From Nitrosopumilus maritimus SCM1 (GTDB lineage: Archaea > Thermoproteota > Nitrososphaeria > Nitrososphaerales > Nitrosopumilaceae): a stretch of DNA of 32,000 nt. This document shows, one piece after another, positions 26,047 to 28,904 of this stretch. The DNA is taken from contig NC_010085.1 of the NCBI RefSeq assembly GCF_000018465.1, positions 1-32,000 on the forward strand. Direction: 5' to 3'. Position 1 is the stretch's first letter; every line of letters begins with the position of its first letter. Under the pieces are notes generated by a model, which did no database searches, had not been told where the DNA came from, and saw nothing but the letters and a program-made list of their open reading frames with translations. A program made the position numbers and the translations under genes.

Positions 26047-26688
26047 TTATTTCACCGAAATTGAATTTCTGAACTCTTGGTTAAAATCAACTGATTTTTC
26101 AAAACTGGTATCTCCAATCTGAAGAAATTTGATATTTTGACCCATCTCAGGATTTACTGCTGAATTAAAGAAAATTTCAAAGACATTCTCATTGTCTGAA
26201 AACTTACCAGAAAATACAACTTTGTAACTGAGATCCTCTTCTGAGGCAGTTCCATGCAGTTCTACATGGGAACCATTGGATTTTCCACTTAATTCTATGT
26301 CAAACTCTCTTTCTCCAAGACTTAGGACTCCGTTAGTTGAAATCTCCCACAAGTCTTGCCCGACTTTTACTGCTTTTCCATCAAAGAGAGTAATTCCAGC
26401 ATTATAGGCCTTGTAATTCATTATTGCCCATCCTGATATGTCAGATGACATCATTCTCTGCATATCTTCTTTCGAAGTATCAGATGGCAAGGCATAACGT
26501 TGGACTTTGAGCTTTCCATCAACCATTTTTTCGGTTAGGATTACTCCTAGTCCCTCATTTTTGGAACTTCCTTTTGGCTCATAAACTCCAGTATTGTCTG
26601 CAAACGAGTAGGTTACAGTAATTGGAGATGCACCAAGCATCAAAAGGACAGCAATAACACCAATAGTTCTGTTTTGGGGTTTTACCAT
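26047..26688 (-). CDS. secreted or membrane-anchored hypothetical protein (213 aa)
   Basis: N-terminal hydrophobic segment IGVIAVLLMLGASPITV followed by a beta-rich sequence. Divergent from the wHTH operon. Confidence 0.6.
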   Translation of the reverse strand: MVKPQNRTIGVIAVLLMLGASPITVTYSFADNTGVYEPKGSSKNEGLGVILTEKMVDGKLKVQRYALPSDTSKEDMQRMMSSDISGWAIMNYKAYNAGITLFDGKAVKVGQDLWEISTNGVLSLGEREFDIELSGKSNGSHVELHGTASEEDLSYKVVFSGKFSDNENVFEIFFNSAVNPEMGQNIKFLQIGDTSFEKSVDFNQEFRNSISVK

Positions 26689-26932
26689 GAATAGTACACT
26701 TCAAAATTATACATTAGGAACAGACAGGAATCGTTCTGTTCTTTATATAGTAAATTTCAGCAAAAACTTCTAAAATCTATCAATTTCAGACATTTTTTCT
26801 CAATTTGTCAAAAAGTATGTTTTTTGCAAGAAATCTAGTATTTTTCATACAAAAAACTAGGCACAGAATTTCTAGGAATTTTCTCCTCCGCAACGATTTT
26901 GCCAAAAATTGACAATTTTTTCTGTTCAAAAT

Positions 26933-26965
26933 GGTGTTCCGCTACGTGTTCCGCTATGGTGTTTC
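26933..26965 (+). promoter_or_regulatory. 12-nt-periodic direct repeat GGTGTTCCGCTA / CGTGTTCCGCTA / TGGTGTTTC upstream of the wHTH operon
   Basis: Two full copies and one partial copy read directly from the sequence, 40-70 nt upstream of the ATG at 27005. A 17-nt palindrome AAAAATTG-a-CAATTTTT lies at 26904-26920. Confidence 0.5.
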
Positions 26966-27004
26966 AAAACATTCCTCAATAACTAATTGATTGTATACTA
27001 TACC

Positions 27005-27292
27005 ATGTCAAAACAACAATACAGGTCCGAAATGGGCATCATGGGTGATATCCTAAACGTTACTGCTGATGGCGGTCGTGAAGGAATCATTGTATCTGCA
27101 ATATCTCGCAAAGCCAACCTATCTCACTATGCAGTACTAGACAAATGTGAGAAACTGGTAGAAGCAGGCTTAGTCGAGTCTGTCAAAAACGACAGAAATA
27201 GAGTCTTTCAAATCACTGAAAAAGGACTTCAATTTTTCCAAGAATTCAAGAGATTTCAGGGACTCGTGGAGAGCATGAACCTAAGGTATTAG
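27005..27292 (+). CDS. small winged-helix DNA-binding protein (COG3432-like)
   Basis: The track ORF starts at TTG 26987; the ATG at 27005 is preferred. GIMGDILNV...ISRKANLSHYAVLDKCEKLVEAGLVES...RVFQITEKG fits a wHTH of the archaeal COG3432 type. Confidence 0.7.
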   Translation: MSKQQYRSEMGIMGDILNVTADGGREGIIVSAISRKANLSHYAVLDKCEKLVEAGLVESVKNDRNRVFQITEKGLQFFQEFKRFQGLVESMNLRY

Positions 27293-27295
27293 CCA

Positions 27296-28303
27296 ATGAA
27301 TCCCCAAATCGTACCAATTCATAGGACAGAGTCTCGAGAAGATGGAATGCTTTTTGTAAGGACTGATGGTATCATCGATACAATGGTTAATGCACCTCTG
27401 ATAGTTGCAGGATTGCTGGTTGTAGCACTAACGATACCTTTGCAGACCTCATTTGCCACTACTCGAACTCTTGATCTAATCATCAATTCAGATGGTTCTA
27501 CACATATCTCCTCTCAAATTGATGTGGATTCCTCAAACTTTGAGTTAAGTCTCTTTGGCCCATCTATTGACAACTTTGTTGCAATTGGGTCAGATGGTAC
27601 GACATTATCTGGTGAAGTCATTGAAGATAAAGCGATGATTCAGACGAGTGATCATTCTTCTATCACCGTAAACTATGATATCCACGACTTAATTTCTAAA
27701 GAAGGTAGGATCTGGACATTTTCATTTGATTCTCCTACAAATTATTCCCTCCTAATGCCAGAAAACTCTGTCATTGTTGGAATGAATATTCTACCTGAAA
27801 ACATGGAACAACTTGATTCTCAAATTAAATTAGATATATCTCCTGGTTCTGCACAAATTGATTACATCTTTAGTACTCCTGTAGAAACACCTACAACTCC
27901 ACCTGAATTTTCATTTGATTCAGTAACTATTGGTTTGATAGTTGGCCCAATTGCAGCAGCTATAATTGCTTCAGTAATTGTGGTAAAAAAGAGACAATCA
28001 AAACCTCAATTACAAACTGAGATAATCCAGGATATTCCTAAACCCACAACTGATTCACTAACTCCTGATACAATCTTTAATCTCAGACCAGATATGAGAG
28101 AAGATGATAAAGAGATTGTAAAATTCATCTCTGAGAATGGTGGTGAAGTCTTTGAAAGTGAGCTAAGAAAGAAGTTCCTTCAACCAAGAACCACAATGTG
28201 GAGAGCCGTAAAAAGACTAGAAAGATTAGGTGTAGTTGAAATTTACAAAAAAGATCTTCTAAATATGGTCAAATTACGAAACGATTTGGAGGAAGAGAAT
28301 TGA
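27296..28303 (+). CDS. bitopic membrane protein: extracellular beta domain, PEFS + TM + KKRQ segment, cytoplasmic winged-helix domain
   Basis: 335 aa. TM1 is about aa 31-49 and the ectodomain about aa 50-200. PPEFS is at aa 202-206, TM2 at aa 211-230 and KKRQ at aa 231-234. The C-terminal EIVKFISENGGEVFESELRKKFLQPRTTMWRAVKRLERLGVVE is MarR/TrmB-like wHTH. Confidence 0.7.
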   Translation: MNPQIVPIHRTESREDGMLFVRTDGIIDTMVNAPLIVAGLLVVALTIPLQTSFATTRTLDLIINSDGSTHISSQIDVDSSNFELSLFGPSIDNFVAIGSDGTTLSGEVIEDKAMIQTSDHSSITVNYDIHDLISKEGRIWTFSFDSPTNYSLLMPENSVIVGMNILPENMEQLDSQIKLDISPGSAQIDYIFSTPVETPTTPPEFSFDSVTIGLIVGPIAAAIIASVIVVKKRQSKPQLQTEIIQDIPKPTTDSLTPDTIFNLRPDMREDDKEIVKFISENGGEVFESELRKKFLQPRTTMWRAVKRLERLGVVEIYKKDLLNMVKLRNDLEEEN

Positions 28304-28650
28304 AGAGCCTAACGTTACTTGCACTATTGGTATTGACAGTAGGCATCATTTCTACAAACCAAGCATTTGCAGAACCACTAGATTCTGTTAGCACCTCTGT
28401 TTCAAACTATGATGGAGATTCTGCAACTGTAGAGATTACCTGGAATAACGATGATTCAGTGAAAAATTACAAAGTTGGCTGTGTTAGTTGTACTCCAAAT
28501 ATTGTAGAATTCACAACTGGTAATAGTATGACCATAGATAATGTTACACCATTCCCTAATGGCTCATCTGCATTACTTTATGTGATTAGCTATGATTCCG
28601 AAAACAACATCATAACTGCAAAACAACTCATAGTCAATCTTAATCAGTAA
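28300..28650 (+). CDS. secreted small protein (116 aa), Ig/FN3-like
   Basis: The TTG start overlaps the preceding stop (TTGA). Signal peptide ending QAFAEP, then a beta-rich sequence with a single CVSC pair. Confidence 0.6.
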   Translation: MKSLTLLALLVLTVGIISTNQAFAEPLDSVSTSVSNYDGDSATVEITWNNDDSVKNYKVGCVSCTPNIVEFTTGNSMTIDNVTPFPNGSSALLYVISYDSENNIITAKQLIVNLNQ

Positions 28651-28703
28651 TTTTCAAACTCCCAAAAATTATCATAAACTTATTATACATTTTCCAAACA
28701 GGA

Positions 28704-28904
28704 TTGAGCATGGCATCTAAAGCAATTACTGTTGGTGTGGGAATTCCAATGATTGTGGTTGGCGCTTTGATGGCATGGTTATGGGCTCCAATGGAAGGAG
28801 ATCTTCAAAATCAAGTAGAACTAATTGGAAGTACAATTGGCATTCTAGGCATAGTGTTCTTTATTTCTGGATTGTTCTACACAAAAGAACCAGTGATGCA
28901 TTAG
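28704..28904 (+). CDS. small membrane protein (66 aa, two TM helices)
   Basis: Two hydrophobic helices. TTG at 28704 or ATG at 28710. Confidence 0.45.
   Translation: MSMASKAITVGVGIPMIVVGALMAWLWAPMEGDLQNQVELIGSTIGILGIVFFISGLFYTKEPVMH

Follow-up and report, generated by a model that had tools for sequence, protein, structure and literature searches.

The first 32 kb of the genome of the marine, ammonia-oxidising archaeon Nitrosopumilus maritimus SCM1 (a single contig of 1,645,259 bp), referred to below as the window, harbour a compact three-gene cassette that probably serves as a trans-envelope regulatory unit. Sequence comparison and structural modelling suggest that its first gene, g1, encodes a soluble winged-helix protein that would bind an operator and regulate its own transcription, and that its second gene, g2, encodes a membrane-tethered winged-helix protein that would act as the sensor together with a co-encoded secreted partner. 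The partner slot in the window is occupied by g3, which encodes a secreted FN3-like protein. The flanking genes are designated g0, which encodes a divergently transcribed secreted protein, and g4, which encodes a micro-protein with two transmembrane (TM) helices.

Gene packing and conservation of the cassette

A first-pass annotation of the window had described three tightly packed genes, and the open reading frame listing bears this out: g1 and g2 are separated by 3 nucleotides (nt), and g2 overlaps g3 by 4 nt in an ATGA arrangement. The cassette and its upstream element are laid out as follows.

26936..26977, plus strand: candidate operator upstream of g1, conserved direct repeats, TATA-adjacent
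27005..27292, plus strand: g1, ATG start, soluble HTH_45 winged-helix protein of 95 amino acids (aa)
27296..28303, plus strand: g2, 335-aa membrane-tethered winged-helix protein
28300..28650, plus strand: g3, 116-aa secreted FN3/Ig-like protein, translationally coupled to g2

The g1 frame is also open from an alternative start, a TTG at 26987. Co-occurrence of the genes was examined in 151 Nitrosopumilaceae genomes from 25 genera, of which 126 genomes and 20 genera contain g2. Coordinate checks placed the best g1 match directly upstream of g2 and on the same strand in more than 100 genomes of these 20 genera, with a fragmented assembly (G199) as the sole exception among the checked cases. The synteny anticipated for the two genes across relatives is thus present. 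Genomes without g2 keep weak g1 paralogs only (E-values of 1e-11 to 1e-16), and these genomes include single losses within genera. As g1 is missing wherever g2 is missing, within-genus losses included, the pair has been gained and lost together. The packing is not attributable to chance, because the g1-g2 adjacency recurs on this scale and because the 4-nt overlap between g2 and the next gene is found in nearly all inspected loci.

The g1 protein matches Pfam HTH_45 (PF14947) over residues 6-86 with an E-value of 7.2e-10 and 39.2 bits against a cut-off of 25.5, in agreement with its earlier description as a soluble COG3432-type winged-helix partner. Its score against the Sso10a model (NCBIfam NF053610) is 37.3 bits, below the cut-off of 60, and its closest solved structures are generic ones (AF_1382, PadR and the MarR protein ST1710). 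Sequence identity of g1 is 92-99% among loci of the same genus, with one exception at 49% (L029); the g2-adjacent copy retains 69-100% identity in most other genera and 56-63% in a divergent genus, g38. A recent origin of g1 by duplication of the g2 winged helix was considered and rejected (BLASTP E-value of 0.33). Judged by the distribution of its homologs, g1 is a Nitrosopumilaceae addition to an older two-gene pair. One genome of the family, G126, carries the g1-g2 pair twice on contig C17 (2193-3659 and 27168-28634). The two copies have the same match scores, are inverted relative to each other and lie some 24 kb apart, which could reflect a true inverted duplication or an assembly artefact.

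Conserved DNA elements and their candidate reader

The element upstream of g1 consists of GTTCCGCT (26936-43), N4, a second GTTCCGCT (26948-55), N5, GTTTC (26961-65), N6 and TTCCTC (26972-77), so that the repeats follow a period of about 12 nt. It abuts a TATA-like sequence, AATAACTAATT (26978-88), with the g1 ATG following about 20 nt later. The element is near-invariant in 23 loci of the genus and recognisable in ten further genera, GC-rich genomes included. Within the 1.65-Mb genome the GTTCCGCT tandem repeat is unique even when up to two mismatches are allowed, and single GTTCCGCT octamers occur at chance frequency (12 observed versus 3-12 in simulations). The position of the direct repeats upstream of the TATA-like sequence would fit either activation or occlusion of the transcription factor B recognition element (BRE).

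A related element, which was not expected, lies at the promoter of the divergent gene.

26047..26688, minus strand: g0, 213-aa secreted protein divergent from g1, no Pfam match
26717..26741, no strand assigned: g0-promoter inverted repeat GGAACAG-N11-CTGTTC, candidate repressor site, from an alignment of 13 g0 upstream regions

The inverted repeat uses the same half-site as the g1 element and lies just downstream of the g0 TATATAA box (26742-26749, minus strand); this location downstream of TATA suggests repression. All 13 aligned g0-bearing loci share a near-invariant TATATAA(R)GAACAGGAYGNTTCCTNNCYGTTCCTAAWCTAT, with the repeat in the form (G)GAACAG-N11-CYGTTCC. The weight of this palindrome rests on its conservation, because the pattern is as frequent in a reversed-genome control (one occurrence) as in the genome itself (one occurrence). 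The g0 gene, for which the family search returned no match, is present in at least 13 loci of the genus, and on the strength of the shared half-site it is likely co-regulated with the g1-g2 operon. A wider GTTCC regulon was sought and rejected, as the tandem and palindromic patterns occur once each in the genome and no further targets were found.

Which of the two winged-helix proteins reads these sites is suggested by their distribution and by the divergent genus. No GTTCC sites were found upstream of those g2 homologs outside Nitrosopumilaceae that lack g1. In genus g38 the half-site shifts from GTTCCGCT to a GTTCCA type, and the g1 protein of this genus differs in helix 2, the wing and the recognition helix, where LSHYAVLDKC becomes LSHY(V/A)(T/A)L(A/T)KC; the g2 recognition helix of the same genus is essentially unchanged. 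Because the element tracks g1 and not g2 alone, and because g1 and the half-site covary in genus g38, the comparison points to g1 rather than g2 as the reader of the GTTCC operator.

The membrane-tethered protein, its partners and a neighbouring gene

The architecture of g2 was taken from an AlphaFold2 model built from a 46-sequence alignment, in which the confidence of the folded domains is given as predicted local distance difference test (pLDDT) scores.

aa 1-30: cytoplasmic N-terminal tail with a G-M-L-F-V-R motif
aa 33-52, nt 27392-27451: TM1 or signal peptide, AlphaFold2 helix at 33-45
aa 56-192, nt 27461-27871: beta-sandwich ectodomain, all-beta, pLDDT ~90
Between ectodomain and TM2: Pro/Thr stalk
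aa 212-232, nt 27929-27991: TM2, AlphaFold2 helix
After TM2: flexible linker of ~35 aa
aa 265-327, nt 28088-28276: winged helix, H1-S1-H2-H3-S2-S3 at 269-327, pLDDT ~90

In the model the stalk before TM2 is long and disordered, and the linker after TM2 is disordered too. TM2 has a hydropathy of 2.72 over 19 residues and is kept family-wide. A predicted TM region together with a predicted DNA-binding domain defines the transmembrane transcription regulators (TTRs) (PMC10269533), and TM2 supplies the former. The net charge across the family is +3.7 in the 12 residues after TM2 versus -1.0 before it, a positive-inside distribution that places the winged helix in the cytoplasm, as the first-pass annotation had assumed. 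From sequence and model together, g2 is therefore predicted to hold its DNA-binding domain on the cytoplasmic side, as TTRs do. The model, the Pfam matches of the family and the charge distribution agree on the architecture initially proposed for the middle protein, with a beta domain outside, a TM helix and a winged helix inside, and the segment first assigned to the winged helix (nt 28106-28255) falls within the modelled domain.

Support for the winged helix in the C-terminal domain comes from family profiles as well as from the predicted structure. Among the 46 aligned family members, 44 match MarR_2 and HTH_24, and 37 match DUF7343 (PF24034) at an E-value of 1 or below, with a best value of 1.2e-8. 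The DUF7343 cut-off of 27.6 bits is exceeded by two distant relatives (29.4 and 30.4 bits), and no match to this model is reported for the g2 of the window; distant relatives also exceed the cut-offs of MarR_2 and HTH_IclR. Conservation in distant members is higher in the winged helix (49% identity) than in the ectodomain (26%). The recognition helix follows the pattern P(K/R)TTxWRxVxRLxR with almost no variation, even in Bathyarchaeia, and the invariant residues R291, T299, W302, R303, R307, R310, K318 and N323 are spread over the wing, helix 2 and the recognition helix. NCBI names the g2 homologs "MarR family / helix-turn-helix transcriptional regulator". The first of these labels is loose, because about 40-60 residues match and the MarR dimerisation helices are absent, and it calls for correction in the databases: the window protein scores 17.2 bits against the MarR_2 cut-off of 27, over residues 277-315 only, so that its likeness to the MarR family proper (PF01047 / PF12802) amounts to a partial match below cut-off without flanking dimerisation helices.

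The N-terminal tail motif, G-(M/I)-L-F-V-R, is found in most of the Nitrosopumilaceae genera that carry g1-g2, and an SFA/SFS motif follows TM1. Outside Nitrosopumilaceae the tail is absent and g2 begins with an ordinary signal peptide. A PEF-CTERM/archaeosortase signal was considered for g2 and rejected, as PPEF occurs in the window sequence only (close relatives have PSEF or TSGF and others are unrelated), and as the segment is internal with about 100 residues following, while PEF-CTERM signals are C-terminal.

A search of 1.84 billion representative sequences with the g2 profile recovered 421 clusters at E-values of 1e-30 or below and 901 at 1e-10 or below. Homologs in named genomes extend to Nitrososphaera, Nitrosomirales, other Nitrososphaeria and Bathyarchaeia, Hecatellales included. 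In the loci inspected outside Nitrosopumilaceae g1 was not found beside g2, which is instead repeatedly accompanied by a gene for a large secreted helical protein; the pair of g2 and this partner also occurs in Hecatellales. The usual partner is an alpha-helical protein of 222-528 aa with a signal peptide that overlaps the g2 stop by 4 nt, and the ATGA overlap is kept in nearly all loci for either type of partner. The ancestral partner of g2 is thus a secreted helical protein, and sequence comparison dates the pair of g2 and partner, which reaches Bathyarchaeia, as older than the addition of g1. Several lineages have helical repeats built into g2 itself, inserted between its ectodomain and its TM helix, a further sign of the link between g2 and its partner.

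Individual lineages elaborate on this arrangement. In one Nitrososphaeria lineage (L022:1276-2880, minus strand) the helical partner ends in a zinc protease domain of the matrixin type, with the motif HEFGHALGLEH (Peptidase_M10, E-value of 1.5e-9). In Candidatus Hecatella orcuttiae (L050:3974-5662) a third gene follows the g2 homolog and its helical partner and encodes a 562-aa protein that has a g2-type ectodomain at its N-terminus and also Ig-like repeats, and whose C-terminus is multi-TM where g2 has its winged helix. In Nitrososphaera-type genomes (L047, L048, L049, L054, L061, L065 and L094) the stretch 40-90 nt upstream of the g2 homolog repeatedly contains the motif AAAACTTATATC(G), which is most likely the BRE/TATA consensus of the Nitrososphaera lineage.

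The g3 protein occupies the partner position in the window. AlphaFold2 predicts, with a pLDDT of 87, a signal peptide followed by a sandwich of seven strands, and Foldseek aligns the protein to FN3-type domains and monobodies at TM-scores of 0.5-0.65; the label "Ig-like" given to it in the first-pass annotation is therefore fair. No Pfam model matches g3 above cut-off. An invariant G-C-V-S-C segment, with the CxxC cysteines C61 and C64 (28480-28491), is found in all 33 aligned homologs and could be a disulfide, a metal site or a redox site. Within the genus g3 is confined to the five closest genomes, and elsewhere it was found in one other genus (L111); the family comprises 75 clusters, all of Nitrosopumilus type and labelled "hypothetical proteins". 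A tblastn search gave no match to the helical partner elsewhere in the SCM1 genome. As the helical partner is absent from the genome and g3 sits in its slot, g3 has replaced it. The earlier description of a secreted Ig-like partner consequently holds for the fold and for the window, but not as a general feature of the family, since the replacement is restricted to few lineages.

Structural comparison of the g2 ectodomain with Foldseek returned a lumenal chain of yeast oligosaccharyltransferase (OST) as the best match (8agb_E and 7oci_A, E-value of about 6e-6, TM-score of 0.33), and also paired it with the N-terminal beta-saddle of M1 aminopeptidases (E-value of about 1e-5). A sequence search of the PDB with the g2 profile gave nothing significant. 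The Ribophorin_I model (PF04597) gave no signal in the 46 family members and none in the six-frame translation of the genome at an E-value of 10 or below. Homology to Ribophorin I/Ost1 was accordingly rejected, the fold match being modest and the sequence-profile signal nil, and we treat the likeness as a fold analogy to beta sandwiches that face peptides or glycans. Pfam has no model for the ectodomain family or for the partner families. A weak paralog of the ectodomain (E-value of 1.4e-8) is encoded in the same genome at about 1,594,923-1,595,819 (L031:3024-3920), in a 298-aa surface protein that ends with a PEF-CTERM-like tail (VVPEFS, a TM helix and KKFNLR).

The micro-protein downstream of the cassette had been counted with the module in the first-pass annotation.

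28704-28904: g4, two-TM micro-protein

The gene exists, but its assignment to the module does not stand. It adjoins queE in every locus, including five genomes without g1 and g2, and in one of the genomes lacking g1 and g2 it abuts the coiled-coil gene that elsewhere sits upstream of the cassette. A BRE/TATA-like sequence, AAACTTATTATA (28674-28690), which resembles the AAAACTTATATC promoter motif of the Nitrososphaera genes, precedes g4. This sequence lies about 25 nt ahead of an ATG at 28710, a spacing that suggests leaderless transcription of g4 on its own, and the true g4 start is probably this ATG (MASKAIT..., 64 aa) and not the TTG at 28704. By its neighbourhood across genomes, g4 belongs with queE and outside the cassette.

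Proposed mechanism, alternatives and known systems

We infer the direction of regulation in the cassette as follows. The g1 protein would bind the GTTCC sites and autoregulate the transcript of g1, g2 and the partner, and would also control g0. An extracytoplasmic or envelope cue would be detected by the g2 ectodomain acting with the secreted partner, which would be made alongside it in stoichiometric amounts. From there the signal might take either of two routes: the g2 winged helix could act on DNA, either while still tethered to the membrane or once freed by proteolysis; alternatively, g2 could control g1, for example by sequestration, with its conserved N-terminal tail as a candidate contact. 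The overall logic would be that of a co-component TTR combined with a soluble relay or autoregulator. The linked, co-encoded extracytoplasmic partner that marks co-component systems is found here in nearly all loci, as the signal-peptide protein that overlaps the g2 stop. A more specific form of the second route, which we put forward tentatively and with considerable doubt, is a three-protein sequestration relay in which the outside sensor decides whether the cytoplasmic face of g2 (tail or winged helix) captures g1, thereby switching the GTTCC promoters; if true, such a relay would be undescribed in archaea.

Several observations weigh against the cassette as a trans-envelope regulatory unit. 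Taken alone, the g2 protein of the window is below Pfam thresholds (MarR_2 at an E-value of 0.006 and HTH_24 at 0.025, residues 271-315), and its modelled winged helix is devoid of the helices through which MarR proteins dimerise. Upstream of g2 homologs without g1, no conserved DNA motif was found. The covariation of operator and g1 comes from one clade only, and g0 is absent from several relatives. The N-terminal tail of g2 is missing in genus g38 despite the presence of g1, an observation that counts against a contact between tail and g1.

The failure to find a DNA motif tracking g2 outside Nitrosopumilaceae would also suit a different function, in which g2 is not a transcription factor at all: ectodomain and helical partner would serve envelope or surface-protein biogenesis, the winged helix would dock a protein or RNA, and g1 would be a local operon regulator. 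We consider this unlikely, though several features are in its favour. The top Foldseek matches are an OST lumenal chain and the peptide-binding N-domains of M1 aminopeptidases, the same genome has an ectodomain paralog as part of a surface protein whose tail resembles PEF-CTERM, the co-encoded proteins are all extracytoplasmic, and a winged helix so extremely conserved from one class to another would suit a protein or RNA partner too. The fold matches are modest, however (E-value of about 1e-5, TM-score of about 0.3), with no Ribophorin_I sequence signal, and the invariant residues of g2 are placed as in DNA-binding winged helices, with relatives of g2 exceeding the cut-offs of DNA-binding HTH families. 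It is very improbable that the genes are mere neighbours, in which case g1 would be a regulator in its own right, g2 a membrane protein with no relation to it and g3 a secreted protein placed there at random. Such a view could appeal to the variability of g3 and g0 and to the g1 paralogs elsewhere in the genome, but it is at odds with the way in which g1 and g2 stay strictly adjacent and are lost together across 20 genera and with the conservation of the 3-nt gap, the 4-nt overlap and a dedicated cis-element.

A sub-variant of the regulatory cassette would have g2 latent in the membrane and freed by regulated proteolysis, with a first cut outside, made by the partner or an associated protease, and a second cut within the membrane. 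Release of this kind is known for bacterial RseA or TcpP and for eukaryotic SREBP or Notch. The disordered stalk before TM2 and the disordered linker after it would accommodate such cleavage, one lineage has a matrixin-type zinc protease joined to its helical partner, and proteolytic control of TTRs is documented (PMC10269533). We nevertheless regard this sub-variant as quite unlikely: the protease fusion is restricted to that one lineage, the locus has no associated site-2 protease, the sequence bears no cleavage-site mark, and the "PEF" before TM2 is not conserved.

Ammonia-oxidising archaea rank among the ocean's most abundant microbes, they possess few two-component systems, and their sensing of the environment is poorly understood. 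A trans-envelope regulatory cassette present in 20 of the 25 sampled Nitrosopumilaceae genera, with an unusually well conserved operator, would provide a testable entry to their envelope and environmental signalling through two short DNA sites, two small predicted DNA-binding domains and two outside proteins. If the three-protein sequestration relay considered above is true, an ancient Thermoproteota-wide family of membrane winged-helix proteins would form a general substitute for two-component systems in these organisms. A literature search on this cassette family, including the likely locus tags Nmar_0032 to Nmar_0035, found no paper.

Known systems share individual features with the cassette. 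BlaI/BlaR1, MecI/MecR1 and SdpR/SdpI are operons in which one transcript carries a small soluble winged-helix regulator and a membrane sensor of an outside cue; the sensor controls the regulator by cleavage or sequestration, and operons of this type are autoregulated via repeats at their own promoter. The membrane partners in these systems are not known to carry a DNA-binding domain, whereas g2 has its own, much older winged helix, and no homology is known to connect the two groups.

The first-pass annotation had treated the module as undescribed, a claim that does not survive in this general form. Membrane-tethered one-component regulators have been catalogued in bacteria and archaea, with 1,384 archaeal TTRs at about four per genome and an enrichment in Thermoproteota, and bacterial co-component systems have been published whose TTR is modulated by an associated protein outside the cell (PMC10269533). 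Archaeal membrane-bound one-component HTH regulators have also been characterised, namely ArnR and ArnR1 of Sulfolobus acidocaldarius, and the promoters on which they act, like those of the cassette, carry conserved boxes (PMC6396743). The layout of ArnR is unlike that of g2, with an N-terminal HTH, a cytoplasmic HAMP-like/sensor region, two C-terminal TM helices and no ectodomain (PMC6396743), and against the ArnR model g1 scores 23.8 bits versus a cut-off of 400 and g2 gives no match. The closest likeness in logic is to the bacterial systems ToxR/ToxS, TcpP/TcpH and VtrA/VtrC (PMC10269533), which combine, as the cassette appears to, a TM-held winged helix, an extracytoplasmic domain and a co-encoded outside partner that modulates it, in a one-component scheme free of phosphotransfer. 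Relative to these systems g2 is reversed, with an N-terminal sensor outside and a C-terminal winged helix; its winged helix is MarR/DUF7343-like and theirs OmpR-type, its partner is helical or FN3-like rather than lipocalin-like, and no sequence homology was detected. The cassette further adds a soluble winged-helix protein with its own operator. What appears to be undescribed is therefore this particular family, in which a reversed orientation and a secreted helical or FN3 partner are joined by that added soluble protein and its operator.

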